NCBI GenBank assembly: GCA_910575505.1
Contig: CAJTFK010000014.1
Coordinates: 79,540-103,539, forward strand
Length of the DNA stretch: 24,000 nucleotides
Source: Oscillospiraceae bacterium
GTDB lineage: Bacteria; Bacillota; Clostridia; Oscillospirales; Oscillospiraceae
Direction of reading: 5' to 3'
Shown: piece after piece, positions 611 through 24,000 of the stretch
How the letters are laid out: each line of letters begins with the position of its first letter
Numbering within the stretch: position 1 is the stretch's first letter
Translations under genes and position numbers: made by a program
The notes under the pieces: generated by a model
The model's database searches: none
Told to the model about the DNA's origin: nothing
Seen by the model: the letters and a program-made list of their open reading frames with translations, nothing else

Positions 611-1783
611 ATGAAATCAAACTTCTTTTTTATGCCTATCCCTCAATATTTTGGGGCTGGCATTTCCATGGAAATCGGAGCACAGCTGGCACAGCTACAC
701 AGCAAGAAGGCTCTGGTTATGTATGACAAGGGTGTGGAGGCCGCCGGGATTCCGTCAAAAATTGTCCAATGTATCCAGGCAGAGGGAATCCTGGTGGTTC
801 AAAATGGCGATGTGGAATCCGATCCGAGCGACATCACCGTGAAGCGGATTGCGGAGATCGCGCGGCAGGAACAGGTGGATGCTGTGGTTGCTATTGGAGG
901 CGGAAGCAGCATTGACGCGGCGAAGTGCGTGAAGCTGCTGCTGAACAATTCCGGAGTCTTGGAGGACTTTTACGACCTTACCCGTCCCCAGAAGCCCTCC
1001 GGCATTCCGATGATCGCCATCCCCACCACTTCCGGCACGGGAAGCGAGGCGTCCAAGGGCGGCGTTATTACGGACACCAGTAAAGGTCAAAAACGCACGA
1101 TTATCGGGCCTGGAACGATGCCGGACATGGCGCTGGTGGACCCGGAGCTGACGCTAAGCGTCCCCCCGAAAGTCACGGCGGCGTGTGCATTTGATGTCCT
1201 GGCTCACGCAATTGACGCCATTACATCCAACATGACAAATCCCATTACCCAGGCTATTTCCTATGAGGCCATCCGGCTGATGAAGGGGAGCTACCGGCAG
1301 GCCGTGGAGGACGGGGCCAGCCTCCAGGCCCGGTCCGATATGCACTTGGCGTCCAACCTGGGCGGTATTGTGCTCTCAAACGCAAAGTGCTCCGTCAGCC
1401 ACGCCTTTGCCCACGCCATGGGTGCGCTCTACCATGTGCCCCACGGCGTATGCTGCGCAATATTTACCCCGGCGTGTCTGGAGTATGTAGCGGATCAGAG
1501 GCCGGAGGAAATCCGTAAAATCGCGAAACTGTTGGACACGCCCTTCCGGGAGGATGAATCCACGGCGTCTATCGCGTGGCGAACCGGAGAGACGATTCAC
1601 AAGATGTATCGAAGCGTCGGGGTGCCCGACATTATCGAGTATATCCCAGATGCGGCGGAGGCGAAGCGGGCCCTGATTCCCGTGGCGAAGCAGGACATTA
1701 TGGCTACATTCAGCCCTCGGGCGTTGGACGACGCCGGGGGATGCTGGATTATTGACAGAACCTTTGAGCTTGCGAGGCAATAA
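611..1783 (+). CDS. Iron-containing (group III) alcohol dehydrogenase family protein
   Basis: 390-aa ORF with a GAGGT RBS-like element upstream. It has the Fe-ADH hallmarks GGGSSIDAAK, the His-rich metal-site segments FDVLAHAIDA and HAFAHAMGALYHVPHG, and the typical ~390-aa length. Confidence 0.85.
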   Translation: MKSNFFFMPIPQYFGAGISMEIGAQLAQLHSKKALVMYDKGVEAAGIPSKIVQCIQAEGILVVQNGDVESDPSDITVKRIAEIARQEQVDAVVAIGGGSSIDAAKCVKLLLNNSGVLEDFYDLTRPQKPSGIPMIAIPTTSGTGSEASKGGVITDTSKGQKRTIIGPGTMPDMALVDPELTLSVPPKVTAACAFDVLAHAIDAITSNMTNPITQAISYEAIRLMKGSYRQAVEDGASLQARSDMHLASNLGGIVLSNAKCSVSHAFAHAMGALYHVPHGVCCAIFTPACLEYVADQRPEEIRKIAKLLDTPFREDESTASIAWRTGETIHKMYRSVGVPDIIEYIPDAAEAKRALIPVAKQDIMATFSPRALDDAGGCWIIDRTFELARQ

Positions 1784-1800
1784 CCCGTACTCTTAGGAAA

Positions 1801-1840
1801 AAGATAGCCTCACGCCAGCGGCGTGGGGCTATCTTCTCTT
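1801..1840. terminator. Hairpin between convergent genes (adh on +, XRE gene on -); probable bidirectional terminator
   Basis: The arm aagatagcctcacgc(c) at 1801-1816 pairs with gcgtggggctatctt at 1821-1835 (15 bp including one G-U), with a 4-nt loop. The flanking T/A runs are weak on both sides. Confidence 0.5.
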
Positions 1841-2168
1841 AGCGAGTACATTCAATCGCTTCATCTATGATTTTTAGAATATGCGGCATTTTTTCAGCCG
1901 GAACAGCTTTCAATTTCTGTATGACATATTCAAAGCTGTCTGGAGTCCTCCCAAACAATAAGGTGTCTGCGGAAAGATTGAGGGCCACGGCAAACGCCCG
2001 GATAGACTCAGAGGACAGGCCGGAACGGCCACGTTCCACTTCCTGAATAAAGTTAGCACTATAACCAGACAATTTCGCCAAGTCCTCACGAGTCATTTTC
2101 TGGGCTGTCCGTTCGTTTTTGATTCTGGCTCCGATTTCTATATTGACGTCTTTCAATTTCCTAGCCAT
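1839..2168 (-). CDS. XRE-family helix-turn-helix transcriptional regulator
   Basis: 109 aa. IGARIKNERTAQKMTREDLAKLSGYSANFIQEVERGRSGLSSESIRAFAVALNLSADTLLFG is a canonical HTH_3/Cro-C1 pattern. RBS AAGGTGG lies upstream on the minus strand. Confidence 0.8.
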   Translation of the reverse strand: MARKLKDVNIEIGARIKNERTAQKMTREDLAKLSGYSANFIQEVERGRSGLSSESIRAFAVALNLSADTLLFGRTPDSFEYVIQKLKAVPAEKMPHILKIIDEAIECTR

Positions 2169-2172
2169 AGCA

Positions 2173-2237
2173 TTACACCACCTTTACAAGTAGTGTAACC
2201 CCGAATAGGCAAAAGGAAAATTCTTACAAGTTTGTAA
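2173..2237. promoter_or_regulatory. Operator-like palindromes sharing the half-site TTACA/TGTAA, upstream of the 1839-2168 XRE gene
   Basis: TTACAagtagTGTAA at 2184-2198 (5-5-5 inverted repeat). TTACAAgtTTGTAA at 2224-2237 (perfect 6-2-6 inverted repeat). An extra TTACA half-site sits at 2173-2177. Confidence 0.45.
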
Positions 2238-2324
2238 TTTCGTCTATAGCAATACACCGAATTATATGATATACTGCCAGTAGTGACCCGTATGGGACGG
2301 TGACAGCACAAAGACAACAGCGGC

Positions 2325-2360
2325 AAAAAGAAGGGGCGAGATGACCGCTCGTGCGGTCAT
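2325..2360 (-). terminator. Possible terminator of the RHH gene
   Basis: ATGACCGC-tcgt-GCGGTCAT forms an 8-bp stem (2341-2360) overlapping the stop codon. On the minus strand it is followed by ctcgccccTTCTTTTTG. The T-run is offset by ~8 nt, so this is only moderate. Confidence 0.4.
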
Positions 2361-2557
2361 TCCTCACCCTCAATCTTAACAATATCTACCGCTGATTCAA
2401 GAAGTAAATTGATGATCTCGTTGCGGGAACGATTTGCGGTTTCTGCTAGGGCGTCCAACCGTTCAATCAATTCATCTCTCATACGGACAGACACGACCTT
2501 GTGTCCATCATCTCCCCTGCGGACAGATTTTTTCTTAATTTTGATCTCCTCTGCCAT
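2357..2557 (-). CDS. Ribbon-helix-helix (CopG/Arc/MetJ-like) DNA-binding protein
   Basis: 66 aa. KVVSVRMRDELIERLDALAETANRSRNEIINLLLESAV fits the beta-strand/helix/helix RHH pattern. RBS GAGAGGTGG lies upstream on the minus strand. Confidence 0.7.
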   Translation of the reverse strand: MAEEIKIKKKSVRRGDDGHKVVSVRMRDELIERLDALAETANRSRNEIINLLLESAVDIVKIEGEE

Positions 2558-2588
2558 GCTGCCACCTCTCTTGTAGTTGTAGTTTAGC

Positions 2589-2638
2589 TTGACAGAGATA
2601 ATTTTAATATATTATAATTATATAGTCTCAATAGACTA
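2589..2638 (+). promoter_or_regulatory. Near-consensus sigma-70-type promoter on the + strand plus an adjacent small palindrome, in the RHH upstream region
   Basis: TTGACA (2589-2594), 18-nt spacer, TATAAT (2613-2618). It is followed by TAGTCT-caat-AGACTA (2623-2638), and the tandem GTAGTTGTAGTT lies just upstream at ~2573-2584. No >=60-aa + strand ORF lies downstream, so the transcript would run antisense to 2856-3173. Confidence 0.4.
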
Positions 2639-2855
2639 CTATTTTATAGTTTAAAAAGTTTCACCTGATTTCCGGCTGCTTAATGGTGATCTGTGCATGG
2701 CCCCGGCTGGGACCGCTTCACCCGTTCCAATAAGCTGTAAGTGTACAAAAGGAGTTTGATCGTGACAATGCCTGGATTGCGGCTGTTGCAATAAATAATA
2801 ATTTTTATAGTGGTAGGGGGCACACCAGCTTTTGCGTATCCATCTGCGCTCTTTC

Positions 2856-3173
2856 CTACTCTTGAAGCGGCTTTATCCGCTCCATTACACCGATAATTGC
2901 TTGCAGATCAGCTTCGTCCATAGTTTTTGCCCTTTTTAATAATTCCTGGATCAAGATAGGAGCTGTTTCCGTATCGTCAAAAAAGCCACGTACAGATACG
3001 CCTAAGTATTCACAAATGTACGGAAGCTCACTTAAAGATGGGAGTGTACGCCCAGAGGTAATAGAGTGAATGTAATTTTTCCCGTGCCCTAAATCCAGGC
3101 TCATCTGATACTCCGAAACATCTTTTTGCATACGAAGCTCTGTAATCCTGCTTCTTACAAACGCCTCAAACAC
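2856..3173 (-). CDS. XRE-family HTH protein
   Basis: 105 aa. ITELRMQKDVSEYQMSLDLGHGKNYIHSITSGRTLPSLSELPYICEYLGVSVRGFF is an HTH_3-like pattern. Confidence 0.7.
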   Translation of the reverse strand: MFEAFVRSRITELRMQKDVSEYQMSLDLGHGKNYIHSITSGRTLPSLSELPYICEYLGVSVRGFFDDTETAPILIQELLKRAKTMDEADLQAIIGVMERIKPLQE

Positions 3174-3284
3174 TTGCTCACCCCTCTTCTAAAAACAAGT
3201 GTACATTGTTCGCAGTAGCCATAGTAACTCTGAAAAGAGGAATAACTTGTTGCAAATTCCGCTTTGTTGCGTTACAATGTTTTT

Positions 3285-3318
3285 GCAAAATAAAAAGAGC
3301 CGACAATATTGTGTCGGC
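3285..3318 (-). terminator. Rho-independent terminator of the 3321-3668 gene
   Basis: GCCGACA (3299-3305) pairs with TGTCGGC (3312-3318) around a 6-nt loop. On the minus strand it is followed immediately by TCTTTTTATTTTG. Confidence 0.7.
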
Positions 3319-3320
3319 CC

Positions 3321-3668
3321 TTATAGATCCTCTTCAATACCGCCAAATTTCAGTATCCCTCGAATCAAGTCCTCTATTTCAATGAACTGCTGATCAGATA
3401 AAGGCTTCAATAAAGAAGAAATATGAAGGCAGTCAATATCAGATACTTGTCCAGTTAATAAGAAATCTGTACTGATACATAATGCTTTTGATACTTTAAC
3501 TATACTTTCCGCCCGAATATTTTTTCTTCCAGTTTCAACACTTGCAAAAAACTGTTGAGTTAGTCCCGCTTTTTCGGCAGCCTGCTCTTGTGTCAAGCCA
3601 AGCTGATTTCTCCGACTAGCGATACGCCGTCCTATTTCGATTGCAAGTGGACTTTTATTTTCTGCCAT
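3321..3668 (-). CDS. XRE-family HTH transcriptional regulator
   Basis: 115 aa. IGRRIASRRNQLGLTQEQAAEKAGLTQQFFASVETGRKNIRAESIVKVSKALCISTDFLLTG is a canonical HTH_3 pattern. It is divergent from the 3780 operon. The inverted repeat CCTCTAT...ATAGAGG (3674-3701) overlaps its RBS region. Confidence 0.8.
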   Translation of the reverse strand: MAENKSPLAIEIGRRIASRRNQLGLTQEQAAEKAGLTQQFFASVETGRKNIRAESIVKVSKALCISTDFLLTGQVSDIDCLHISSLLKPLSDQQFIEIEDLIRGILKFGGIEEDL

Positions 3669-3779
3669 ACAGACACCTCTATCTATTTTTTAATAATAGA
3701 GGTTTTTTCATTCATCGTAAATTGCCGTTTGTTGTATTTTAACAACCAAAAAGCGTATCAGGAGGAATAGGGAGAGAAT

Positions 3780-4424
3780 ATGGAAAACACTTTTTTGACA
3801 CGGAAGGCAAACGGCGAAAAGATTTTTATCTCTGGACTTCTGGAGGCTCCACCCTCCAACGAGGTTTTGAAGGAGCTTTTCCCATACAGCAGGAACAGCG
3901 CACCGTACATAACTCAGCTCGGCCTAAAGATTTTAAAGCTGCGCCTGGATGGGAAGGACAATGATGAAGCCGGAAAAGAGCTGAACCTCACACGGAATCA
4001 GGTGGAAGGCCGGTTCCAGAATATCAAAACTAAATTTGAGCGGGGTCCCATCCCGGATTATATCGAGTTGGACCACCCGGCGCTGCGGCGCCTTCGCGGC
4101 CTGGAGGTAACGTTCACGGATGGATACATGAAGCTGTCGGAGCTGCTGCGGGCTATGCCCTCCGATCAAGAACTAAAAGAGTTTGCCATTCTGCGTGGGA
4201 ACGTCTCCGGTTTCGGAACCCAGCGAATGTTGAACCATGAGGACCTGATTTTGCTCCAGAAAAAACAGGCGGGGATGCGGAACGCGGGTATTGCCAGGGA
4301 GCTTGGCGTCCGGCCAGAATCTATTCGCAGCCGTTTAATGTGGATTCGAAATGTGCTAAAGCGGATGGGTGTTCAAATTGATCTGCCCGATCTATTTCCG
4401 TTTGAGGTGGGCGAAAATGCGTGA
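3780..4424 (+). CDS. Hypothetical protein with two sigma-70 region-4/LuxR-like HTH segments
   Basis: 214 aa with RBS AGGAGGAA upstream. The two HTH-like segments are LRLDGKDNDEAGKELNLTRNQVEGRFQNIKTKF and KKQAGMRNAGIARELGVRPESIRSRLMWIRNVLKRM. Confidence 0.5.
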   Translation: MENTFLTRKANGEKIFISGLLEAPPSNEVLKELFPYSRNSAPYITQLGLKILKLRLDGKDNDEAGKELNLTRNQVEGRFQNIKTKFERGPIPDYIELDHPALRRLRGLEVTFTDGYMKLSELLRAMPSDQELKEFAILRGNVSGFGTQRMLNHEDLILLQKKQAGMRNAGIARELGVRPESIRSRLMWIRNVLKRMGVQIDLPDLFPFEVGENA

Positions 4425-9853: not shown

Positions 9854-12700
9854 ATGAAGATCATAAGCTGGAACGTAAATGGAATTATAGCCTGCCGTAG
9901 GAAAGGTTTTTTACGTTTTTTGGCAGATACAAAACCGGATGTTATGTGCTGCCAGGAAGTCAAGACCAAGTGCGCTCTGAACACTCCCGGATATCAGCAG
10001 TTTTGGAATCCCGCCCTGCGGTCAGGGTATTCCGGCACATTGATTCTGGCAAAGCAGGAACCGTTATCGTGGTCCACGGGATTTGGAAACAGCAAATTTG
10101 ATGAGGAGGGCCGCCTGATTACGCTGGAATATGCGGATTACTATATTATCAACGTATACGTTCCCAGCGTTCACCCCCACAACTCCCCAGACAGGCCGGA
10201 TTTTCGCCTGGAGTGGGACGAGGCCCTGCGGGAATATATCGCCAATCTGCCGAAACCCGTTGTTTTGTGCGGCGATTTTAACGTAACCCACGCTTACATT
10301 GACAGCTATCCCGAGAACGGAAAAAATGAGCCGGACAACCCGCTTTTCCGCTCAGAGGTACGGGATGGGTTTGACAAACTTCTCGCTGCTGGAGTCGTTG
10401 ACGCCTTTCGGGTATTGAATCCGAACAAAGAAGGAGCCTATACATGGTGGGGACCGAAAAATAAGAACCGCGCCGAAAATCGCGGTTCGCGGCTGGACTA
10501 TTTTCTCGTTTCCGGGGAGTTGTTGTCTTTCGTGCAAAGTATCCGATTTCACAAGGACATCCTCGCCTCCGACCACTGTCCCATTTCCATGCTTTTTTAT
10601 CCGATAAGGCCAAAGCGGGAACTAGACGACGAGGATATGACCGCTATTTGGAGCTCCATTGATTGGGACCGCCTGACGGGCATTCTATTGCTGCTGCAGC
10701 AGGATCTGGCTTACGCCGCCTATAACCGGGAGTGGGACAAGGTAGACCTGCTGCAACGCCAACTGGTAGGCTCCTGGGCGGCGCGTGCACTGGCCGTGAG
10801 AGAGGTTCTGAATGGCAGCGGTTCGCCGGGAGTGGATGGCGTTCGCTGGACTACTGACGCTCAGAAAGCGAAAGCCGCACAGTCTTTGACCGCAAGGGGC
10901 TACCGGCCCCTTCCATACCTTTACAGGGAGCTGGAGGAGCGCGGGAAAGTGCGGATCAACCTGATTCCAACCATGAAGGACCGGGCCATGCAAATCTTAT
11001 ACTCCTTCGCGCTGGACCCCGTTGCGGAATCAACAGCGGACAAGAAATCTTTTTTTGCCCGAAAAGGGCGTTCTCCCCTCGATCCCAATGCCCATCTGCT
11101 CCATGATCTTACTATGGAAAACGCGCCGACCTGGGTAGTCATCGCTGATGTGCAGACATTTTACGCTACCGTGGCGCATGACTGGCTCATTGAAAATATC
11201 CCGATGGATAAAACTGTGCTGCGGAAGTTTCTAAAGGCGGGGATGGTAAGGAACGGAGAGCTGTTTCCAACAGATAAGGGGATGTCCATGGCCTCCGCCT
11301 TGTCTCCTAAATTAGGGAACATGATGCTGGATGGACTGCAATCCTACATTTATGACCGACTCTATCCCTCTGGCGGCGTGGACTACCCAAACGGGAATTT
11401 AAACCGGCTTTTGGACGATATGGTGATAACTGCTCGGGACCGCACACAGGCCGAGCTGATCATGCAGATCGTAGAAGAATTTCTTGCTTGCCGAGGACTG
11501 CGGCTTCATCCTGAAAAGTCTTATATCACCAACGTTTATGAGGGTTTCGATTACATTGGCAGACACTATCAGTTTAAATACGGGCGTCTTTCCGTAAAGC
11601 CCGCTGAAAGTTCCATCATACAGTTTGAAGCAGAGCTGAAAAACCTTATCATGAACTTTTCAGGGACGCAGAGGGATTTGATTAAGGAAGTTAACTGGAA
11701 ACTGGCCGGGTGGGGACATTACCACCGTACAGAGGACGCTTATATGGATTTCAGGCATATTGATTCGATTGTTGAAGGGTTATTGGTCAAAAAGATGTGC
11801 ATGAAGTATCCGCGCTGGCACCGGAAAACCGTGTTAAATAAATTTTGGGTGAGAGACGGCTGGAATTATGTTTTTGTTTTACCAGCAGATCACTCGGTCA
11901 GAGTAAACCGTCTGGCTCCTCTGCCAATTATGCAGCACAAACCATGCCGGTTAAATTTTAATCCATATCTGGATCAGGATTACCAAATCTACCTTCAGCA
12001 TCGTCGGAACATTCAGAAAAGCAACGGAAAATACCGGGGAGTATGGACCCGGCAAAGCGGGCGCTGCGCGTACTGTGGAGCGAGGATGCTGGCCGATCAG
12101 GAGGTTGAGCTGGTTGAAAAGAATTTAGGGCAGGGCTGGAGCGCGAGAAATCTTCAATATGTACACCGGCAGTGCGGATATCAGGTGCAGTTCGGCGGCA
12201 ACGAAGTGAACGGGGAACATATTGACCTCTTCTCAATTCTGGAAGGGTTTGAAAATCATACTCCGGATGATGACTCTCCGTACATAGAATTGACCGAGTA
12301 TTTTCGTAAACACAAGCAGCCGGTCATTTGCCTGAAGTTCCAGGAGATCGAACGCATTTTGGGAGAGCACCTGCCCTGGGAGGCGTACTGTTTTGAGGCG
12401 TTCTGGTATGACGACACACAGGAGCTGAACTCTCCCATGTGGCGGTCTGAGGGGTTTCCATTTCATAAGTTCCTGTTTTCAGAGCAGAGCTTTAATATCA
12501 CTCATTCCTGGTTAAGCCAAGGCTACAAAATAAAAGCCCTGCATCTGGAAACAAGCCAAGTCACGTTCCGCAGGGAGGATAAAAACGCTTCCGGGGTGGT
12601 ATTGCCCAAAGCGTTGACCAATCAGCGTCTACCGGAGGAAGTAGTATATAAATTCAACAAAATGGTGCAGCAGTTTGCAAAAGACTATGGGCTGATATAG
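9854..12700 (+). CDS. Fusion protein: N-terminal ExoIII/APE-type (EEP) nuclease + group-II-intron-like reverse transcriptase (RT0-RT7 + thumb/X) + degenerate Cys/HNH remnant + uncharacterised C-terminal domain
   Basis: Uninterrupted 948-aa ORF with GGAGG at 9841-9845, 8 nt before the ATG.
EEP motifs: SWNVNG, CCQEVK (E35), GDFNV (D141/N143), RLDYF, ASDHCP (D240/H241).
RT motifs in order: SPGVDGV, YRPLPY...INLIPTMKDRAMQ, VVIADVQTFYATVAHDWL (D432), GMSMASALSPKLGNMMLD, LLDDMVI (D521/D522), LRLHPEKSYI...GFDYIGRHY.
Thumb-like: WKLAGWGHYH.
Cys motif: CAYC...HRQC (aa 738-774). Confidence 0.85.
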   Translation: MKIISWNVNGIIACRRKGFLRFLADTKPDVMCCQEVKTKCALNTPGYQQFWNPALRSGYSGTLILAKQEPLSWSTGFGNSKFDEEGRLITLEYADYYIINVYVPSVHPHNSPDRPDFRLEWDEALREYIANLPKPVVLCGDFNVTHAYIDSYPENGKNEPDNPLFRSEVRDGFDKLLAAGVVDAFRVLNPNKEGAYTWWGPKNKNRAENRGSRLDYFLVSGELLSFVQSIRFHKDILASDHCPISMLFYPIRPKRELDDEDMTAIWSSIDWDRLTGILLLLQQDLAYAAYNREWDKVDLLQRQLVGSWAARALAVREVLNGSGSPGVDGVRWTTDAQKAKAAQSLTARGYRPLPYLYRELEERGKVRINLIPTMKDRAMQILYSFALDPVAESTADKKSFFARKGRSPLDPNAHLLHDLTMENAPTWVVIADVQTFYATVAHDWLIENIPMDKTVLRKFLKAGMVRNGELFPTDKGMSMASALSPKLGNMMLDGLQSYIYDRLYPSGGVDYPNGNLNRLLDDMVITARDRTQAELIMQIVEEFLACRGLRLHPEKSYITNVYEGFDYIGRHYQFKYGRLSVKPAESSIIQFEAELKNLIMNFSGTQRDLIKEVNWKLAGWGHYHRTEDAYMDFRHIDSIVEGLLVKKMCMKYPRWHRKTVLNKFWVRDGWNYVFVLPADHSVRVNRLAPLPIMQHKPCRLNFNPYLDQDYQIYLQHRRNIQKSNGKYRGVWTRQSGRCAYCGARMLADQEVELVEKNLGQGWSARNLQYVHRQCGYQVQFGGNEVNGEHIDLFSILEGFENHTPDDDSPYIELTEYFRKHKQPVICLKFQEIERILGEHLPWEAYCFEAFWYDDTQELNSPMWRSEGFPFHKFLFSEQSFNITHSWLSQGYKIKALHLETSQVTFRREDKNASGVVLPKALTNQRLPEEVVYKFNKMVQQFAKDYGLI

Positions 12701-15295: not shown

Positions 15296-15336
15296 TGCGC
15301 ATTTGACTCCAGAAAGGAGTCAAATGCGCATTTTTC
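15296..15336 (+). terminator. Strong rho-independent terminator (A-run upstream, so possibly bidirectional)
   Basis: TGCGCATTTGACTCC (15296-15310) pairs with GGAGTCAAATGCGCA (15316-15330) in a perfect 15-bp stem with loop AGAAA. It is followed by TTTTT and preceded by TTTTT(T). Confidence 0.8.
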
Positions 15337-15414: not shown

Positions 15415-15900
15415 ATGAAAAACTGGAAGGAAAATCGAAATTACAGGCGGATCAAAGACGAGAGCGGCGCTGTAATCGCAAATATTATCACCGTCGACGG
15501 CATTGATGTTGAAGTTACCAGCGAGGTATTTCTGGCTTACTCTCAATCGGATCGCCGGGAGCGCTACATAGCGGAGGAGCTGGAACCCGGCAAGCTTTTG
15601 TCATTGGACAAGCTGCGGGAGGACGAAGTTCCTCTGGGTGAGTTAGGCGTCGAGCAGGAGCCGAGCGCGGAAAGCGTTCTGCTGCTTTGGGCAGACAATC
15701 AGGAAAAGGCTGTGCAGAAAGCGCGTCTTACCGCCATGCTCTCAGAGCTGAATGAAGAAGAAAAGGGCCTTATTCAAGCACTATTTTTTGAAGGCGTCTC
15801 CGCTCGGGAATACGCCAGGCGGCTCGGCGTATACCATAGGACCGTCATTTATCGGAGAGATAAATTGCTGGAAAAACTTCGCCGGAAAATTTTTTCATAA
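15415..15900 (+). CDS. Sigma-70 region-4-like HTH protein of the type common in Firmicutes conjugative/integrative elements
   Basis: 161 aa. The C-terminal LSELNEEEKGLIQALFFEGVSAREYARRLGVYHRTVIYRRDKLLEKLRRKI is an r4-type HTH. Confidence 0.65.
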   Translation: MKNWKENRNYRRIKDESGAVIANIITVDGIDVEVTSEVFLAYSQSDRRERYIAEELEPGKLLSLDKLREDEVPLGELGVEQEPSAESVLLLWADNQEKAVQKARLTAMLSELNEEEKGLIQALFFEGVSAREYARRLGVYHRTVIYRRDKLLEKLRRKIFS

Positions 15901-15988
15901 ATCTTTTATCCACCCCTTGATTATTCGGGAGGGGGAGTGAGGGGAACTGGAATGCCTCTCGCTGCTCCTTGAAAATCAAATATCAGCA

Positions 15989-16327
15989 GTACGGGAAACC
16001 GCCCGGACAGACGAGCGTCCAGTAGCGCACGCCATGACACCGGAGGAATGTAAGCATCCAATTCCTGCACGGCTCCGGGTGGAGCCGTGCAGGGCCCCTC
16101 CGACGAGCGAGAATGCCACCCGCTGGGACGGCCTTTGGCAGGGCCGCCAGCGTTGACCCTGTCCGGGTACACAATGAGACACCTCTGCGCGGCCTGAGAT
16201 CCAGGTTGCGGGGCTGCCTTGGGGTTGAAAGCAGTAGAGACCCCTGGTATATGCCCGTGCGGGTTTAGCCGAACCCGTCCCGTACTGTTCCCGATCCACC
16301 GGGGCGCGAGCTGCGAATACGGTGGAT
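15989..16327 (+). ncRNA. Candidate structured RNA (unknown class) in the GC-rich leader of the helicase gene
   Basis: A consistent nested helix set was found by hand.
- Long-range helices: 15989-15996/16278-16285 (8 bp), 16002-16010/16159-16167 (9 bp), 16041-16046/16097-16102 (6 bp).
- Hairpins: 16065-16092 (perfect 12 bp, loop GGGT), 16121-16152 (6+5 bp with a bulge), 16188-16210 (9 bp including two G-U), 16260-16277 (6 bp plus a G-U).
- 3' hairpin: 16294-16327 (8 bp).
The G-U pairs only work on the + strand. The overlapping minus-strand ORFs look like non-coding GC-rich sequence. Confidence 0.35.
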
Positions 16328-16367
16328 TTGACTGAAGAAAACGAACGAATTTAGGGGAACTTTAAGG

Positions 16368-18284
16368 ATGAATGATTATAACAGGCAAAACTCCCATAAC
16401 AAGATTGACCATATTTTCAAGGATCTACTTCCGGCTCAGGGAATGCCGGAGCGCCCGGAGCAGATCGCCCTGAGCCATCGGATGCTGGAGGCCATGCAGG
16501 ACGGCGGCATCGCCCTCTGCGACGCCGGGACTGGCATTGGAAAGACCTACGCTTATCTCGTTGCCGCAACGGTTTTCCATAGCCTGCACCTCGCCCAGCC
16601 TATCCTCATTTCCACCTCCAGCATCGCCTTGCAGAAGGCCGTGCGGGACGAGTACCTGCCTCTTCTCTCCACTGTTTTGACAGAGGATGGAATGATCACA
16701 GAGCCCCTCCAAGCGGTAATCCGCAAGGGCAAATCCCACTACGTCTGCGACCAGCGGCTGGAACGGCGGCTGGGGCAGTTGGACCTCCGAAAGAAAAACT
16801 GGAGAGCCGGAAACGCCCTGCTTTCCCTGCGGGAGAGGCTGGACCTGGACGAAGCGCCCCGCCTCAGTGGTTATGACCGAGAGCGGGTGTGCGTCCCCAA
16901 TGTCTGCGACTGCCAGCGGGAAAACTGCCGGTACCGCGCCTTCCTGGACAGCTGCGACAGCGGTCAATTTCCCTTCCAAATTTGCAATCACAACCTTTTG
17001 CTGGCGGACGCCATCCACCGGGGAACAGGCCGTCAGCCCATCCTGCCGGACAGCCTCGCCGTCATCATCGACGAGGCCCACAAGCTGCCGGAAACAGCCC
17101 GGCAGATGTTCGGCGTTACCCTTCGGGCCGAGGACATCCAGGGCCTCATCCAGGACCTGCGGCGGGAAAAATATCTGCTGGCGGCAGACGCTCTGGCGGA
17201 CACCTCCCGTCTCTTCCTTCGGAAACTGGAGCGGCCCCACAACCCGGACCGGCGATTTTCCGAATACGCCCGTCTGCTGGTGGCCCCGAACCGGGCTCTG
17301 ACCGTGGTCCGAAAGCAGGTCAATCCCCTGCTCTCCGCCTCTACGCGCCGGCGCCTAGACAAGCTGGCCACCACTGTGGCCCTGTTCAGCGAGGGCCGCC
17401 CAGATATGGTCTTCTACCTGGCGGAGGACTCCCGTGACACCGTTATGCTCTGCGCCACGGTAGCAGACCTGACCGCACAACTCCAGAGCACCCTCTGGAA
17501 CCAGCCCAGGCCCATCATCCTCACCTCTGGCACTCTCGCCGTTGGCAGCGACTTTCACCGCTTCCGGGAGGAAGCGGGCCTGCTGGCGGACAGCCGGGTG
17601 ATGGAGTCTGTTTCGCTTTCCCCGTTTGACTATCGTGAAAACTGTCTGCTGTATGTCCCGCAGTTTCCGCCCGGTCAGAGAAACGAAGCGTATTACGACA
17701 GGCTTACCGACGAGATCGCCTTACTGCTGAACGCGGCCCGCGGCCATGCCCTAGTGCTTTTCACCTCCTACGCCGCCATGTCCGCCGTGAAGGAACGCCT
17801 GACGGCAAAGGAGCTTCTCTGGCCCATGTTCACCCTGGGCCGGAACGCAGTCCACACCACAGAGCAGTTCAAGGCCAGTCCTGGAAGCGTCCTGCTGGCC
17901 ACCGGGGCCGCCTGGGAGGGCTTCGATTTCCCCGGCGACTGCGTGTCCCTGCTGGTAATCCCCCGCCTGCCCTTCGCCCGCCCGGACGCTCTGAAAGAGA
18001 AGGAGCGGGAAGCCTTTCCGAACCTGCATTCTTTTATCCAGGCCATCGTCGTGCCGGAGATGCAGATCAAGCTGAAGCAGGGCTTCGGCAGGGCCATCCG
18101 TACCGAAACGGACACCTGCGTCGTCGCCATCCTGGACGAGAGGTCTGTCCCTGGGCAGCGTTACTTCGAGGATGTGAAAACCGCCCTGCCGGATATGCGG
18201 ATCACCGACAGCCTCCAGGATGTGGAGGCGTTCATCCGCAGCGTCAAGGGGCCGGATTACTTCCGGGAGGGCGGCGAATGGTGA
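16368..18284 (+). CDS. DinG/XPD(Rad3)-family ATP-dependent DNA helicase with an Fe-S cluster domain
   Basis: 638 aa. Walker A CDAGTGIGKTYAY, the DEAH box VIIDEAHKL, the Cys cluster ...YVCDQR...CVPNVCDCQRENCRYRAFLDSC..., and a C-terminal helicase region ...TSGTL...GAAWEGFDFPG.... Confidence 0.85.
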   Translation: MNDYNRQNSHNKIDHIFKDLLPAQGMPERPEQIALSHRMLEAMQDGGIALCDAGTGIGKTYAYLVAATVFHSLHLAQPILISTSSIALQKAVRDEYLPLLSTVLTEDGMITEPLQAVIRKGKSHYVCDQRLERRLGQLDLRKKNWRAGNALLSLRERLDLDEAPRLSGYDRERVCVPNVCDCQRENCRYRAFLDSCDSGQFPFQICNHNLLLADAIHRGTGRQPILPDSLAVIIDEAHKLPETARQMFGVTLRAEDIQGLIQDLRREKYLLAADALADTSRLFLRKLERPHNPDRRFSEYARLLVAPNRALTVVRKQVNPLLSASTRRRLDKLATTVALFSEGRPDMVFYLAEDSRDTVMLCATVADLTAQLQSTLWNQPRPIILTSGTLAVGSDFHRFREEAGLLADSRVMESVSLSPFDYRENCLLYVPQFPPGQRNEAYYDRLTDEIALLLNAARGHALVLFTSYAAMSAVKERLTAKELLWPMFTLGRNAVHTTEQFKASPGSVLLATGAAWEGFDFPGDCVSLLVIPRLPFARPDALKEKEREAFPNLHSFIQAIVVPEMQIKLKQGFGRAIRTETDTCVVAILDERSVPGQRYFEDVKTALPDMRITDSLQDVEAFIRSVKGPDYFREGGEW

Positions 18285-18497: not shown

Positions 18498-18863
18498 AAT
18501 GCAGTAAGAACAGTTTCTCGCACCGCTATATACTGCCGGGGCGGCAGCCACAAAGCGCAGGGCAGACTCTGCAAGGAAGAAATCCTTGCTCATGAGAACT
18601 GGACATTGGCGGACACATATGCGGATGTAGAAATTCCTGACAGCCAGATGCGGGGCTCTCGGACCGCTTTCAACCGAATGCTGGAGGACTGCCGGAAGGG
18701 AAAGCTCGACAAGATCGTAACCATGTCCGTCTCCCGGTTTGCCCGGAACCTCTCCGACGGCCTGACGATTCTGCGGGAACTGAGCGCCATGGGCGTGACC
18801 GTCCACTTCGTCATGGAGAGCATTGACACGGAATCCTTTCTGGCACAAGCTGTTCGGGAATAG
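18492..18863 (+). pseudogene. Truncated, degenerate serine-recombinase (resolvase) catalytic-domain fragment
   Basis: 123 aa. It aligns with the N-terminus of the next gene (YADV../YADE.., FNRMLEDCRKGKLDKIV/FNRMLSDCRKGRIDKVL, SRFARN/SRFSRN, GVTVHF/GVTVQF, IDTE). The nucleophile context YCRVST is replaced by YCRGGS plus an ~8-aa deletion. The ORF stops right after the catalytic domain. Confidence 0.6.
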
Positions 18864-18933
18864 TTCTGGATATCTCCGCCGGGGTATGGTACTGTTGGCG
18901 TTGCCAAAATGGAAGGGAGGCAAAAGCATGGCA
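18848..18933 (+). repeat. Direct repeat copy B (leader of the first full-length serine recombinase)
   Basis: See copy A. Both copies end in catggca (Met-Ala) and both contain ..agctgtNNgggaaTAG with a stop codon at the same position. Confidence 0.6.
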
Positions 18934-20484
18934 GCGAATGTGAAAATTATCCCGCCCAGAGAGAAGGAAGTCTCTGTTCTGCGGGTCGCCGCTTATTGCC
19001 GGGTCAGCACGGACCACGCTGAGCAGGCGCTCTCTTACGCCTCCCAAATCCGCAATTACACCGACCTCATCAATGGCCACGAGGGCTGGGAGCTTGTAGA
19101 CGTCTACGCTGACGAGGCGGTTAGCGGCACGAAAACAGACAAGCGGGAGGACTTCAACCGGATGCTTTCCGACTGCCGGAAGGGCAGGATCGACAAAGTC
19201 CTGGTGAAGTCCCTTTCCCGCTTCTCCCGGAACACGAAGGACTGCCTCGCCTCCCTGCGGGAGCTGATGTCCCTCGGCGTTACCGTCCAATTTGAAAAAG
19301 AGAATATCGACACGGAAACGCTCACCACGGAATTCCTGGTGAGCGTTTTCGGCGCTCTGGCCCAGCAGGAGTCCGTGTCCATCTCCGAAAACGGACGCCA
19401 GGGCTTCCGGCGAAGAATGGAGCTGGGCCAGTTCATCACCACCAAGCCGCCTTACGGTTACCGCCTCAAAGGCAGCGGGTGCCTGGAGATTATCCCGGAG
19501 GAGGCGGAGCTGGTGCGGTGGGTGTTCGACGCCTACCTCAGCGGCCACAGTGTTGGCTGGATCGTCAACGATCTCATCAGCCGGGGTGTCCTGGACCGCA
19601 AGGGCAATGTTCACTGGACCACCCGCCAGATTTACTACTGGCTGTCAAACGAAAAGTACATTGGCGATACCCTCTGCCAGAAAACCTATAAAACCGGATT
19701 TCCTTTCACGCAGAAGATCAACCACGGCGAGGTGGACCAAATCTACGTCGAGAGCTCCCATCCCGCCATCATCAGCCGGGAGACGTTTGAGAAGGCCCAG
19801 GCCCTCCGGCAGAGAAAAAAGCATCGCCGGGACCGCCCCGACGGCGTCTACCCGCTGTCCCGAAAAATGTACTGCGAGGCTTGCGGGGAGGCCCTCTACC
19901 GGAGATCTACCCGGAAGGGAACTGCCGCCTGGAGCTGCCGGAATCACCTGAGAAACGCCTCCTCCTGCTCCGTGGGGCCCATCCCGGAGGAAGCAATCCA
20001 CGCCGCCTTCGCGCGGATGTACAACAAGCTCCGGCTCCACGACGGCGTCATTCTCAAGCCCGCCCTGGGCCAGCTGGACGCTCTGAACGAGGCCCGCCAG
20101 CGGAACAATCCCGCCATGCTGGCAGTGAACAGGGCCATCGCCGAGGCGTCCGACCAAAGCTATAAGGTCAGCGCCCTCCAGAGCAAGGGCGTTCTGGACG
20201 CCTCCGCCGGGGCCGCCAAGCTGCGGGAACTCGATGGCCGTCTGGCGGAGCTTCGGAAGGAGCGCCGCCGTCTGCTTAAGGAGGATGACCTGGAGGAAGC
20301 GCTGGACTCCTTTCGCCAGACAGTCAGTAAGATTCACAGCGGGCCGGACCACCTGGAGGACTTCGATGAAACCCTGTTTTCCGATCTGGTGGAGAAGGTC
20401 ACGGCGGAGTCTCGCTCCCGTATCCGCTTCCACCTCCGGGGCGGCATCGAACTGGCGGAGCGGGTTCAGGAGGATAAAGCATGA
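18928..20484 (+). CDS. Large serine recombinase (first of triplet)
   Basis: The start at ATG 18928 follows GGAAGGGAGG (the ORF track extends upstream to 18823). Motifs: VAAYCRVSTD, YADEAVSGT, SLSRFSRNTKD, a recombinase domain ...PPYGYRL..., a zinc ribbon CEACGEALYRR...WSCRNH...C and a C-terminal coiled coil. Confidence 0.9.
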   Translation: MAANVKIIPPREKEVSVLRVAAYCRVSTDHAEQALSYASQIRNYTDLINGHEGWELVDVYADEAVSGTKTDKREDFNRMLSDCRKGRIDKVLVKSLSRFSRNTKDCLASLRELMSLGVTVQFEKENIDTETLTTEFLVSVFGALAQQESVSISENGRQGFRRRMELGQFITTKPPYGYRLKGSGCLEIIPEEAELVRWVFDAYLSGHSVGWIVNDLISRGVLDRKGNVHWTTRQIYYWLSNEKYIGDTLCQKTYKTGFPFTQKINHGEVDQIYVESSHPAIISRETFEKAQALRQRKKHRRDRPDGVYPLSRKMYCEACGEALYRRSTRKGTAAWSCRNHLRNASSCSVGPIPEEAIHAAFARMYNKLRLHDGVILKPALGQLDALNEARQRNNPAMLAVNRAIAEASDQSYKVSALQSKGVLDASAGAAKLRELDGRLAELRKERRRLLKEDDLEEALDSFRQTVSKIHSGPDHLEDFDETLFSDLVEKVTAESRSRIRFHLRGGIELAERVQEDKA

Positions 20485-21236
20485 ATCGAAAAATTTTGTA
20501 CGGCTACCAGATTCAGGACGGAAAACTGGTCCTTCAGCCCCAAGAGGCCGAGGTAGTGAAACGGATATTCTCCATCTACCTGGAGGGGACCTATCAGTGG
20601 AAAATTGCGGACATTCTGAACGACGACGGCGTCCTGTACAGCCAGGAACGCCCTCAGTGGACCATGCACCGGGTGGGCTACATTCTGAAAAATCCCCGCT
20701 ACATGGGTGCCGACGGCTACCCCGCCATCATTGATGTCATGACCTTCCAAACGGCACAGGAAATCATTCAAAAACGGAAAAAGACCGTTCGCAGATCGGA
20801 CCGCCCAGCCCTTCGATACCGGGAAAAGCTGCGCTGCGGCAAATGCGGTGGCCCCCTAAAGCGGCGGTTCAGCGGACGGAAGCGAAAGGATACGCTGTAC
20901 CTTCAATGCGAGGGCTGCGGAGTCAGGACGGAAATCAAAGATGCCGATTTCCTGGCGGAAGTGGAGCGGCAGACGGCGGCGCATACGCCCTCGGAACAGC
21001 CCTCCACAGCCTATGAGCCGTCCGCCGATGCGGTCCGCCTGACCAACGCCATCAACCGGGGGCTGGAGCGACCAGACCAGCCGGAAGAAATCGTGAAATT
21101 GATTCTCCAAGGCGTTTCCGCCCGGTACGACTGCTTCTCACAGGAGGCCAATCCAATCGATATCCATGGCGAAAGAGCCATTCAATATATCACCGTCTCT
21201 GCGGACAACGCGGTGACGGTGACCTTCAAAGGATAG
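20481..21236 (+). CDS. Recombinase-domain + zinc-ribbon protein lacking the resolvase catalytic domain (second of triplet)
   Basis: 251 aa, starting directly at the recombinase-domain motif ILYGYQI. It contains CGKCGGPL...LQCEGCG. Its ATG overlaps the upstream stop (ATGA, 20481-20484). Confidence 0.75.
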   Translation: MNRKILYGYQIQDGKLVLQPQEAEVVKRIFSIYLEGTYQWKIADILNDDGVLYSQERPQWTMHRVGYILKNPRYMGADGYPAIIDVMTFQTAQEIIQKRKKTVRRSDRPALRYREKLRCGKCGGPLKRRFSGRKRKDTLYLQCEGCGVRTEIKDADFLAEVERQTAAHTPSEQPSTAYEPSADAVRLTNAINRGLERPDQPEEIVKLILQGVSARYDCFSQEANPIDIHGERAIQYITVSADNAVTVTFKG

Positions 21237-21263
21237 CGTAAGCCTACCGGGAAAGGACAGATT

Positions 21264-22901
21264 ATGGAACAGACTGTACGAGAAAAGCGAATACGGATCA
21301 TTCCCGCCACCAAGGAAAAAACGCCCGTCGGAGGCCCCTCTGGAAGGAAGCTGCGGGTGGCCGCTTACTGCCGGGTCTCCACCGACAGCGAGGAACAGCT
21401 CACCAGCTACACCTCTCAGAAGGAGTATTATACGCAGAAGATCGGAGAGAACCCTGATTGGGAATTTGCCGGAATTTTTGCCGACAGGGGCATTACAGGC
21501 ACCAGCATGAAAAAGCGGGCGGAATTCAACCGCATGATTGCCGCCTGCAAGCGAGGCCGCATTGACCTGATCCTCACCAAGTCTCTCTCCCGCTTCGCTC
21601 GGAATACGGTGGACTGTCTAGCCACCGTCCGTATGCTGAGAGGCCGGGGCATCGGGGTCCACTTCGAAAAGGAAAACATTAATACGCTCACGGAGGCCGG
21701 CGAGTTTATGATCACGCTGTTCAGCGGCTTCGCCCAGGCGGAAAGCGAGTCCATCCGGGGCAGTGTGATCTGGGGCATTCTGAAAAGCCGGGAGGCGGGG
21801 AACGTGCCCTTCCAATATACACGGCTGCTGGGCTACCGCCGGGGAGCGGACGGTGAGCCCGAGATCGACCCGGAGGAAGCGGAGGTGGTGCGGCGCATTT
21901 ATCGCCGGTACCTGGACGGGGCCAGCATCTTTGGGATTCAAAGAGAACTGGAACAGGAGCATGTCCCAACCGCCACCGGAGTGAAGCAGTGGTCCTGGCA
22001 GACCATCCACAATATTCTCACTAATGAGCGTTATATAGGTGATGCCCTGCTGCAAAAGACCTATACCACCGACTGCATCAGCAAAAAAATAGTGAAGAAC
22101 ACCGGCGAATTTCCGATGGTTTATGTGGAGAACAACCATCCGGCGATTATCTCCAGGGATATGTTCTATCAGGCGAAGGCGGAGATGGCCCGCCGTGCCA
22201 GTAAACGGAAGGTCATGCAGAAGACCGGCAAAACGGAGCAGGGGAAGTATTCCTCCAAGTACGCCCTCAGTGAACTGCTGATCTGCGGGGAATGTGGGAC
22301 GCCCTATAAGCGCTGCACCTGGGCCAGAAACGGCAAAAAGCGTATCGTTTGGCGGTGTGTTTCCCGCTTGGAATTCGGGAGAAAATACTGCCATGACTCG
22401 CCCTCGCTGGACGAGGAAAAGCTCCACAGGGCCATCGTTGCCGCCCTGAACGAGTACGGCGCCATCCGGGCTGAGGTGAAGGCCGGGGTCCTGGAGCTGG
22501 CGGGGCTGGCGCAGAGCCACGACGAAGGCGGCGGTGCAAGCCTCCTGGAGTTGAAGCAGAAGCTGGACGCCCTGACGGTAGAGCAGGCCGTACTGCTGGA
22601 CAAGGTGCTGGAGGATATGGACAGCCTGGAGCTGAACGCCCAGCTCGAGGCGGTGACGGCGGAGAAACAGGATATTCTGGATCAGATGCAGGCTCTTGAA
22701 GAAGATAAAAGCCGGCGGAGTCTGCGGGCCTCCAGGCAGCGGGAGATGGAGGCGTGGCTGGAGCAGCAACCGTTGTGCTTTACGGAATATGATGATACGA
22801 TTACCCACAAGTTTATAGAACGGATCACGGTGGTGGACGCCGCTACCATTCGGATCAAAATGAAAGATATTGATGTGGTGATCAGCGAAGGGCTGTGCTA
22901 A
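21264..22901 (+). CDS. Large serine recombinase (third of triplet)
   Basis: 545 aa. Motifs: VAAYCRVSTDSEEQ, FADRGITGTS, SLSRFARNTVD, GIGVHFEKENINT, LLGYRR, CGECGTPYKR...WRCVSR...C and a coiled-coil tail. Confidence 0.9.
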   Translation: MEQTVREKRIRIIPATKEKTPVGGPSGRKLRVAAYCRVSTDSEEQLTSYTSQKEYYTQKIGENPDWEFAGIFADRGITGTSMKKRAEFNRMIAACKRGRIDLILTKSLSRFARNTVDCLATVRMLRGRGIGVHFEKENINTLTEAGEFMITLFSGFAQAESESIRGSVIWGILKSREAGNVPFQYTRLLGYRRGADGEPEIDPEEAEVVRRIYRRYLDGASIFGIQRELEQEHVPTATGVKQWSWQTIHNILTNERYIGDALLQKTYTTDCISKKIVKNTGEFPMVYVENNHPAIISRDMFYQAKAEMARRASKRKVMQKTGKTEQGKYSSKYALSELLICGECGTPYKRCTWARNGKKRIVWRCVSRLEFGRKYCHDSPSLDEEKLHRAIVAALNEYGAIRAEVKAGVLELAGLAQSHDEGGGASLLELKQKLDALTVEQAVLLDKVLEDMDSLELNAQLEAVTAEKQDILDQMQALEEDKSRRSLRASRQREMEAWLEQQPLCFTEYDDTITHKFIERITVVDAATIRIKMKDIDVVISEGLC

Positions 22902-22914
22902 GCGAAGCATGAGG

Positions 22915-22970
22915 AAAGAGCGCAGGACCGGAGAGGCAAACGCCGACTCCGATCCTGCGCTCTTTGCTTA
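22915..22970 (+). terminator. Long hairpin after the recombinase triplet
   Basis: AAAGAGCGCAGGA (22915-22927) pairs with TCCTGCGCTCTTT (22953-22965) in a perfect 13 bp stem. An inner CGGAG/CTCCG pairing is present. The tail is TTTGCTT. Confidence 0.6.
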
Positions 22971-23021
22971 TGCCCCAAAACGCCCGAAGCCATTGTGCTG
23001 CAACGGTTTTTGGTCTGCATC

Positions 23022-24000
23022 TTTTTCCCCCACACAAGGAACATTTTTAACGAATGGCTGGTGAGGGATACGAGCAAGAAAATCCGGGCGGTAAAACGCT
23101 CAAAAGGCATGAGTGGGAAGCCTGTCACAAGCAAGCCCGTGTACGGCTACCTCATGGACGAGGACGAAAATTTCATCATTGACGGGGAAGCCGCCCCCGT
23201 GGTGAAGCAGATATACAGCCTTTGCCTTGCCGGGAACGGACCGACCAAGATAGCCCGTATGCTCACGGAGCAGCAGACACCCACGCCGGGAACGCTGGAA
23301 TACCGCCGGACGGGAAGCACACGCCGCTACCACCCCGGCTATGAGTGCAAGTGGGCGACTAACACCGTGGCGCATATCCTTGAAAACCGGGAGTACACGG
23401 GCTGCCTTGTGAACTTCAAGACCGAGAAAGTGTCCTACAAGGTAAAGCACAGTGTAGAAAATCCCGTGGAGAAACAGGCGGTATTTGAGAACCACCACGA
23501 ACCAATCATAGACCGTGACACATGGGAACGTGTGCAGGAGCTACGCAAGCAGCGCAAACGCCCGAACCGCTATGATGAAGTGGGCTTGTTCTCCGGCATA
23601 CTGTTTTGTGCGGATTGCGGCAGCGTCATGTACCAGCAGAGGTATCAGACGGACAAGCGGCGGCAGGACTGCTACATATGCGGCAGCTACAAGAAGCGCA
23701 CCCGTGACTGTACGGCGCACTTTATCCGCACCGACCTGTTGACCGAGGGAGTGACCGAGAACCTACGGAAAGTCACCAGCTACGCCGCAAAGCACGAAGC
23801 CCGGTTTATGAAGCTGTTGACCGAGCAGACCGAGGACGGGAGCAAACGCCGGAACGCCGCAAGGAAGAAAGAACTGGAAGCGGCAGAAAAGCGGATTGCG
23901 GAACTCTCCGCTATCTTCAAGCGGCTGTATGAGGACAGCGTGACCGGGCGCATATCGGACGAGCGTTTCACGGAGCTTTCGGCAGACTATGAAGCCGAGC
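23022..24000 (+). pseudogene. 5'-truncated TnpX-like large serine recombinase (recombinase domain, zinc ribbon, coiled coil); continues beyond the right edge
   Basis: This frame is absent from the ORF track because it runs off the window. Recognisable similarity starts at ..FFPHTRNIFNEWLVRDTSKKIRAVKRSKGMSGKPVTSKPVYGY. It continues through ILENREYTG, CADCGSVMYQQ...CYICGSYKK...C and ...IAELSAIFKRLYEDSVTGRISDERF. No resolvase catalytic domain lies upstream; the same frame back to the TAA at 22899 translates to non-homologous sequence. Confidence 0.7.

Follow-up and report, generated by a model that had tools for sequence, protein, structure and literature searches.

Introduction

canT, which lies between orf8 and xis of Tn916, is a cis-acting, orientation-specific and processive antiterminator that acts on heterologous terminators (Wirachman & Grossman, 2024; PMC11658703). 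Here we compare it with an RNA encoded at positions 15927-16327 (+ strand) of a stretch of 24,000 nucleotides (nt) from an Oscillospiraceae bacterium (GenBank assembly GCA_910575505.1, contig CAJTFK010000014.1, positions 79,540 to 103,539); the whole of this stretch is called the window below. The RNA, of about 400 nt, is followed by genes for a DinG-like helicase and large serine recombinases. Its homology to canT and to the pemK motif of Rfam is well supported, and we read it as a divergent subclass of a canT/pemK class which, by analogy with canT, would act in cis on the helicase-recombinase operon as a processive antiterminator, an interpretation to which we assign a probability of roughly 60%.

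The canT region comprises 452 nt, of which a 341-nt fragment remains active. It functions without other Tn916 genes and is active when transcribed in a reporter, but fails to act in trans; oriT916 and sso916, which have been mapped, are separate from it. Activity is lost on a 162-bp deletion or on a 3-nt change, S3, and the authors noted that minimum free energy (MFE) folds fail to explain their deletion data (PMC11658703). According to a 2026 preprint, orf7 and orf8 constitute a split sigma factor that drives a promoter upstream of both, and the resulting transcript spans sig7-8, canT, xis and int.

The second relative is the pemK RNA of Rfam (RF02913), a 61-nt motif classified as Cis-reg and of unknown function. 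The main text of Weinberg et al. (2017) does not mention pemK, neither the canT paper (PMC11658703) nor the paper on the antiterminator conAn (Miguel-Arribas et al., 2021; PMC8191782) mentions pemK or Rfam, and among the papers searched we found none linking the pemK motif to canT.

Structure of the RNA

The interval 15901-16367 has a GC content of 0.57-0.67, compared with about 0.48 on its 5' side, and holds only short, overlapping open reading frames (ORFs) on the minus strand. This agrees with a preliminary description of the DNA, in which the interval was taken for a GC-rich region with no credible ORF. The + strand folds with an MFE of -210.8 kcal/mol against a shuffle mean of -174.3 (z = -5.48), and 0/100 shuffles fold as well; the minus strand of the region gives z = -2.51.

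For the analysis of covariation, 133 unique sequences were reduced to 37 representatives of less than 92% identity, and two divergent sequences were added. A covariance model could span no more than about 165 positions, and the RNA was therefore modelled as two domains, in both cases from RNAs of the window type only: R1 represents the 3' domain (window 16168-16330) and R2 the 5' domain (15999-16170). P1, the long-range helix that encloses both domains, was tested on a sequence-only MAFFT alignment. In the model-guided alignments 90.0% of the cells of the 3' domain are paired, compared with 30-46% when the strands are slid by 1-3 columns, and 25/29 pairs have changes on both sides. The corresponding values are 89.1%, 32-45% and 26/29 for the 5' domain and, on the MAFFT-only alignment, 97.9%, 29-53% and 7/11 for P1, the observed score being equalled by 0/500 shuffles in each of the three cases. 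Alignments guided by a model are biased towards the structure of that model; the slid controls and the sequence-only results agree. An unbiased all-against-all scan of the columns of a sequence-only alignment recovered five helices, with the strongest signal at P8. Ten helices have covariation support among some 40-50 non-redundant homologues, and window 15927-16327 (+) is a real structured RNA.

The strand is indicated by wobble pairs. One conserved pair of P1 is G-U in 35/39 sequences and the G-U pairs of P6 would be mismatches if read on the opposite strand, in keeping with the + strand transcript that the preliminary description had proposed.

The RNA consists of a 5' hairpin, a 5' domain, a 3' domain and a 3' hairpin, all on the + strand. 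At its 5' limit, ahead of the GC-rich core, the hairpin P0 (15927-15969) varies in sequence between lineages and is always present in the alignments. The single-stranded linker CCUUGAAAA-N5-AUAUC (15967-15984) is near-invariant and extends to pemK-type RNAs and canT. It leads into P1 (15985-15995/16279-16289), the closing helix, which had been drawn at 15989-15996/16278-16285 in the preliminary description; the other long-range helix given there, 16002-16010/16159-16167, is equally real and covaries as P2, which closes the 5' domain (93.9% paired, with changes on both sides in 8/9 pairs).

Within P2 lie P3, a variable arm and P4. P3 is a long-range helix (16019-16025/16120-16126; 78.3% paired, changes on both sides in 5/7 pairs) that has one A-C mismatch in the window copy and occurs among homologues as CCAG/CUGG, CAUG/CAUG and GCGCAG/CUGCGC. 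The variable arm (16040-16102) stands on a conserved base helix, 16040-16046/16096-16102 (91.9%, 7/7). Its distal part (16047-16095) includes a perfect 12-bp hairpin with a GGGU loop (16065-16092), to which attention had been drawn at the outset; the hairpin is present in the window, but this distal part as a whole is a lineage-specific insertion, its columns are empty in the other sequences, and the hairpin is absent from nearly all homologues. P4 (16127-16148; 90.0%, 6/6) carries the conserved loop UUUGGCAG. The repeated octamer GACGAGCG is also present as described, and its cores, GAGC and GAGCGA, are invariant even among distant relatives.

The conserved junction ACAAUGAGACACC (16171-16183) stands between the two domains, and the 3' domain is built from P6, P7a/P7 and P8. 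P6 (16188-16210) has its core at 16192-16196/16202-16206 (89.0% paired, changes on both sides in 4/5 pairs). P7a (16211-16214/16253-16256; 82.7%, 3/4) and P7 (16218-16225/16240-16247; 87.8%, 7/8), with the invariant loop UGAAAGCAGUAGAG, are together (16211-16256) the hallmark of the window subclass. P8 follows at 16260-16277 (92.6%, 6/7). Beyond P1 the conserved UUCCC and the hairpin P9 (together 16290-16326; P9 at 16295-16301/16320-16326, 97.1%, 5/5) form the 3' limit of the RNA, hairpin 16295-16326. The loop of P9, GGGGCGCGAGCUGCGAAUA, is conserved and recurs as a motif in intermediate and pemK-type relatives. An A-rich spacer then leads to the helicase start codon.

Several other pairings were considered. 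In the MFE fold a hairpin is extended outwards by pairing of 16121-16126 with 16147-16152, and in the family this is superseded by P3. A pseudoknot in which GCUGC (16213-16217) would pair with GCAGU in the loop of P7 was excluded from the model; the sole informative variant, in locus L005, is not compensatory. An outer extension of P6 and a hairpin GCG...CGC around the 5' strand of P3 have no support across the sequences. The candidate pairing of UUCCC with GGGG of the P9 loop involves two nearly invariant segments, and the variant found in loci L006 and L014 is not complementary.

Relationship to canT and the pemK motif

A search of Rfam 15 gave no family match for the RNA, whether the whole window was scanned at the gathering threshold or 15800-16450 with E values of up to 10 admitted. 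The preliminary description had likewise been unable to place the RNA in a family; this stands as far as direct matches go, but the covariance models link the RNA both to RF02913 and to canT.

The link to canT is seen most directly in pCF10 (NC_006827), with Tn925, an element of the Tn916 type. In its orf8-xis spacer RF02913 matches at 41822-41922 with 55 bits and R2 at 41922-42049 with 36.5 bits (E = 1.9e-8), the latter being the sole R2 match in 50 kb. The canT region corresponds to pCF10 41790-42085 on the minus strand. S3 replaces ATA by TGC at nucleotide 283 counted from the orf8 stop, which corresponds to 41922-41920, at the start of AUAAUGAUAC; the altered bases are the first three of this pemK consensus, and their counterparts in the window RNA are the first three bases (16171-16173) of the junction ACAAUGAGACACC. 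The inactivating deletion (nucleotides 229-390) takes out P4, the junction and the pemK motif. A P1 helix is predicted for canT on pCF10, formed by AGUAAUCGAA and UUCGAUUGCU near 42061-42052 and 41815-41806.

The two RNAs agree in place and orientation, after one or more sigma-like genes and before recombination genes. They are similar in size (at least 341 nt are needed for canT and about 400 nt make up the window RNA), their 5' domains are detectably homologous by R2, and both have a long-range closing helix. They share the invariant motifs CUUUGAAAACUGAAUA, GAGC, CGCCAUGAC, GAGCGA, a GCAG loop and AUAAUGAnAC. The differences lie in the 3' domain and in the genes downstream: P7 of the window RNA is longer and has the UGAAAGCAGUAGAG loop, pemK hairpin 1 is missing from it, P9 is present in the window RNA and absent from the Tn916 copy, and the genes downstream are xis and int in Tn916 compared with those for a DinG-like helicase and serine recombinases in the window. 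R1 scores only 4.7 bits on canT.

The pemK motif appears to correspond to the junction, P6 and P7 of the window RNA. Both open with AyAAUGAnAC, close with a GGG-UGAAA...-CCC hairpin and continue with R-U-G, and both occur in mobile elements of Clostridia and other Bacillota, 5' of co-directional genes that lead operons. In the pemK consensus AUAAUGAUACUUC, the counterpart of the junction, is followed by three hairpins, the last of them GGG-UGAAAUU-CCC, and then by AUGa; in the window RNA ACAAUGAGACACC is followed by two hairpins (P6 and P7, hairpin 1 being absent), the P7 loop starts with UGAAA, and GUG comes next. P7a and P7 would be the counterpart of pemK hairpin 3. The Rfam model spans about one-fifth of the RNA, and the 5' domain, P1, P8 and P9 lie outside it.

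In support of a larger RNA around the pemK motif, we note that R2 matches directly 5' of the motif, on the same strand, in 19/30 canonical pemK loci (E < 0.001). On the 4.26-Mb genome that contains the window R2 has five matches, each abutting a match of R1 or pemK, with no strays. Moreover, two loci (L199 and L212) have a canonical pemK motif amid the same architecture, which runs P0, CCUUGAAAA, P1, P2, GAGC, CGCCACGAC, a variable arm, GAGCGAUAAA, a GGCA-loop hairpin, GCGAUGAC, the pemK motif, P8, UUCCC and P9. We conclude that the 61-nt motif forms the core of an RNA of about 300-400 nt and that the window RNA is a divergent subclass of that RNA.

Intermediate forms bridge the 3' domains. 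In 150 genomes of the same order R1 found weak full-length matches of 24-30 bits, four of them elsewhere in the window's own genome and the rest in other genomes. These matches have AUAAUGAnAC, UGYUCCC and a P9 loop of the form GGGG...GCAAAUAC in common. R1 matches in L199 and L201 (24-29 bits) overlap RF02913 at 73.4 and 65.6 bits in a relaxed Rfam scan. In the same scan the four intermediate copies of the own genome show no RF02913 overlap, and RF02913 (gathering threshold 34.8 bits) has no match at E up to 10 in 13 window-type and four intermediate loci. Of these intermediate copies, the one on contig 56 is flanked by a sigma-region-4-like gene and, on its other side, a serine recombinase, the one on contig 7 by a YlxM-like helix-turn-helix (HTH) gene and two DUF4368 serine recombinases, and the one on contig 11 is 5' of a tyrosine integrase. 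The order of sigma-like gene, RNA and recombination genes is common to the window, these three copies and Tn916.

We define the canT/pemK class by a layout in which a 5' domain (P2, P3, variable arm and P4) abuts the AyAAUGAnAC domain inside P1. The 5' domain has the motifs GAGC, CGCCAnGAC, GAGCGA and a GGCA loop, and CYUUGAAAA precedes P1. Besides the window RNA the layout is found in L199, L212, Tn925 and the own-genome copies.

The own genome holds at least nine further RNAs of the class: one of the window type, four intermediate (undetected by RF02913) and four of canonical pemK type. By contig they lie at C22:19684-20131(+), C47:18398-18535(+), C56:2026-2293(-), C11:108495-108779(-), C7:151211-151364(-), C37:8469-8566(-), C56:9923-10037(+), C16:64565-64662(+) and C34:11227-11427(-). 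The further copies that were examined are located 5' of recombinase or PemK genes.

Large antiterminator RNAs are also found outside the class. conAn2 of pLS20-type conjugative plasmids needs the protein ConAn1 for action over long distances (Miguel-Arribas et al., 2021; PMC8191782). Like the window RNA it is large (260-600 nt), follows a small protein gene at the start of an extended operon of a mobile element and has distant inverted repeats that close it, and it acts in cis; in pLS20 (NC_015148, 3083-3465) the conAn2 region is closed by an inverted repeat of 18-20 nt, as published. The resemblance is one of layout only, with neither R2 nor RF02913 matching in the spacer between pLS20 genes 28 and 29, and no homology was detected. 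Gram-positive mobile elements therefore appear to contain two or more unrelated types of large antiterminator RNA with this layout. EAR is comparable as a cis-acting RNA that renders RNA polymerase resistant to terminators, but it is much smaller and unrelated in sequence to the window RNA, and, although represented in Rfam, has no match here.

Distribution and gene context

A second copy of the window type occurs in the same genome on contig 22, with 85% identity, 5' of a truncated helicase remnant. Only helicase residues 13-54 remain, as a 63-amino-acid ORF (1900-2120 of locus L003); this element seems to have decayed, whereas its RNA retains the identity just given. BLAST found relatives in 9/200 genomes of the same family, and a motif scan of GTDB species genomes yielded 55 loci, almost all of them from Oscillospiraceae-type gut Clostridia; the genera include Flavonifractor, Intestinimonas, Pseudoflavonifractor, Oscillibacter, Dysosmobacter, Lawsonibacter and Agathobaculum. 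Cultured carriers include Flavonifractor plautii ATCC 29863 (L023) and Oscillospiraceae bacterium 38-13 (L061). More than 120 loci were found on metagenome contigs, mostly from human gut where the source is named. RF02913 itself is present in 34/151 sampled Clostridia genomes, often in multiple copies.

A motif-pattern scan of IMG/VR found none, and BLAST of the RNA against plasmids gave no match. A phage collection gave a single match, MT838666.1, an unannotated 5-kb human faecal contig labelled 'Bacteriophage sp.'. It has the order sigma-like gene, RNA and helicase (1452-4300 of our locus L020), as in the window. Given this contig, DNA of window-type elements may reach phage or virus-like-particle fractions.

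The helicase gene is directly 3' of the RNA in at least 47/55 genome loci, with its start about 140-160 nt past the core motif, and in roughly half of the homologous loci the RNA is preceded by the sigma-like gene. The commonest order is WYL protein, ImmA-like protease, sigma-like gene, RNA, helicase, three serine recombinases and metallophosphoesterase. The helicase has been deleted in some loci: in L055 recombinases follow the RNA directly, and in L109, L148 and L171 it is followed by a TetR gene together with a giant ORF. The RNA is always co-directional with the first gene of the operon and about 40-60 nt 5' of it. Genes that follow relatives encode serine or tyrosine recombinases, Tn916-type excisionases, PemK toxins and ParA-type proteins; those 3' of canonical pemK copies comprise PemK toxins (two), ParA-type ATPases (three), Tn916-type excisionases (two), an HTH_17 protein and a sigma-region-4 protein.

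In several lineages a sigma-70-type promoter ends just 5' of P0, with TAGACA-17-TACAAT and TGGACA-17-TACAAT each giving 10/12 matches. Some copies stand alone (L006 and L014 at 1420-1790 on the minus strand, L049 and L067). In these a 10/12 sigma-70-type promoter ends just 5' of the first hairpin, the P9 loop differs, an AU-rich hairpin with a T run lies 3' of the RNA, and no co-directional gene occurs within about 450 nt. One contig (G038:C45) holds two stand-alone copies and one linked to a helicase.

Proposed function and alternatives

Our model of the window RNA follows canT. The RNA would be co-transcribed with the helicase-recombinase operon downstream, and the nascent RNA would stay bound to its own RNA polymerase, conferring a terminator resistance that is cis-acting and processive. 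In that case transcription initiated at the sigma-like gene, or ahead of it, would pass through the helicase and recombinase genes and, after excision and circularization, cross the joint into the rest of the element. A strong intrinsic terminator with a 15-bp stem and a T run lies 5' of the sigma-like gene, at 15296-15330 (+), and is the sole strong + strand terminator in the window; a polymerase would meet it only once it had gone right round the excised circle. The terminator could serve as an insulator of the sigma-RNA-recombinase unit or as the end point for a transcript circling the excised element.

The downstream genes differ between copies, which would fit a generic device for the start of operons. 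There is no terminator and no conserved helix sequestering a Shine-Dalgarno sequence between the RNA and the start codon, which argues against a classical riboswitch. A GUUCCC/GGGAAC complementarity is present in the window and absent in L004, L020 and others.

Several observations weigh against antitermination as the role of the window RNA. Antitermination has been demonstrated only for canT of Tn916, and its presence in the window subclass would follow by analogy. The 3' domain has diverged, and since R1 reaches only 4.7 bits on canT and RF02913 misses the window RNA even at E up to 10, the link between the 3' domains depends on the pemK-type intermediates. Neither the window nor L086 shows a convincing + strand intrinsic terminator 3' of the RNA that would have to be overridden; the right end of the window's element lies beyond the assembly. 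The near-constant partnership with a DinG-like helicase (at least 47/55 loci) is left unexplained by antitermination, and the stand-alone copies with their own promoter and hairpin with T run (L006 and L014) could mean a discrete RNA acting in trans.

Such a discrete RNA, acting in trans or as partner of the helicase, for example in a ribonucleoprotein or as an R-loop primer for replication of the excised circle, would account for the helicase that almost always adjoins this subclass, for the multiple copies per genome and for the stand-alone copies (L006, L014 and L067) with promoter, hairpin and T run and no co-directional gene nearby. We nevertheless think it quite improbable: there are relatives entirely without a helicase, the helicase has been deleted in the four loci named above, GC skew shows no signature of a persistent R-loop, and canT fails to complement in trans (PMC11658703). 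A low probability is likewise given to a role beyond antitermination in the subclass that combines the UGAAAGCAGUAGAG loop, P9 and the helicase partner, whether in helicase loading or an R-loop start of replication or by action in trans from the stand-alone copies. Another type of cis-regulatory leader, a large aptamer or protein-binding RNA sensing a ligand or a protein of the element or host, might tune the translation or stability of the helicase-recombinase mRNA and in this way set the frequency of excision. The constant orientation and the spacing of about 40-60 nt from the first gene would suit it, as would the many invariant unpaired nucleotides, which suggest a tertiary fold or a binding pocket, and the Cis-reg label of pemK in Rfam. 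We regard it as unlikely, since nothing resembling an expression platform was seen (the RNA is followed by no terminator, and pairing with the Shine-Dalgarno sequence is not conserved), the downstream genes are functionally unrelated, and the homologue canT works on heterologous terminators without other Tn916 genes (PMC11658703). The preliminary description had offered a leader of the helicase among its options; a role as 5' leader is retained here, but it is not specific to the helicase, other genes following the relatives.

Single-strand origins are strand-specific and highly structured, and the RNA lies in a mobile element near a helicase and recombinases. These points would suit an element acting at the level of DNA, such as a single-strand origin, an oriT or a recombination site with DNA hairpins; the last two had been among the options of the preliminary description. 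Against it, several lineages have promoters immediately 5' of the first hairpin, the spacing to the next start codon and the orientation do not vary, and G-U pairs, a multi-junction architecture and invariant loops are conserved; furthermore, canT is distinct from oriT916 and sso916 and acts when transcribed (PMC11658703). We judge the element to be RNA and consider a function as DNA very improbable. A decayed protein gene, or chance structure in GC-rich DNA, has next to no probability and is refuted by the covariation data. Short minus-strand ORFs rich in R, G, P and A do overlap the region, but indels among homologues are not multiples of three, no start codon is conserved, substitutions keep base pairs rather than codons, and 0/100 shuffles fold as well. 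A family of minus-strand ORFs (cluster 3) was examined for coding potential and dismissed as an artefact of GC-rich antisense sequence.

Neighbouring genes

Upstream of the RNA, at 15415-15900 (+), a gene encodes a 161-amino-acid protein similar to sigma-70 region 4, the positional counterpart of Tn916 orf7/sig7. Its Pfam and NCBIfam matches are weak and under the curated cut-offs, and its resemblance to Orf7 of pCF10 is also weak (BLASTP E = 0.007 over region 4). The first gene 3' of the RNA, at 16368-18284 (+), encodes the DinG/YoaA-like helicase (Helicase_C_2, 6e-28), for which the YoaA and DinG matches of NCBIfam fall below their cut-offs. A run of genes for large, CcrB/XisF-like serine recombinases occupies 18823-24000 (+), co-directional with the RNA.

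From 3780 onwards almost all genes of the window are on the + strand. A 948-amino-acid ORF at 9854-12700 encodes an Exo_endo_phos nuclease fused to a reverse transcriptase of the group-II-intron type (RVT_N, RVT_1, GIIM and DUF7662); the Rfam search of the window did not find a group II intron RNA.

Implications

If our reading is correct, the orphan pemK motif gains a testable function in processive antitermination, because canT carries the motif and S3 hits its most conserved bases. A comparative structure becomes available for canT, with ten helices, two domains and a long-range closing helix. The pemK model of Rfam misses at least two subclasses, and the own genome alone has two window-type, four intermediate and four canonical copies. 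Given this limited coverage, such RNAs are probably under-annotated in the mobile elements of gut Clostridia.

The broader interest of the comparison is that it connects an orphan motif of Rfam with an antiterminator defined by experiment. In the mobile elements of gut Clostridia, RNAs of this class may, if the proposal holds, couple excision to expression of the whole element.

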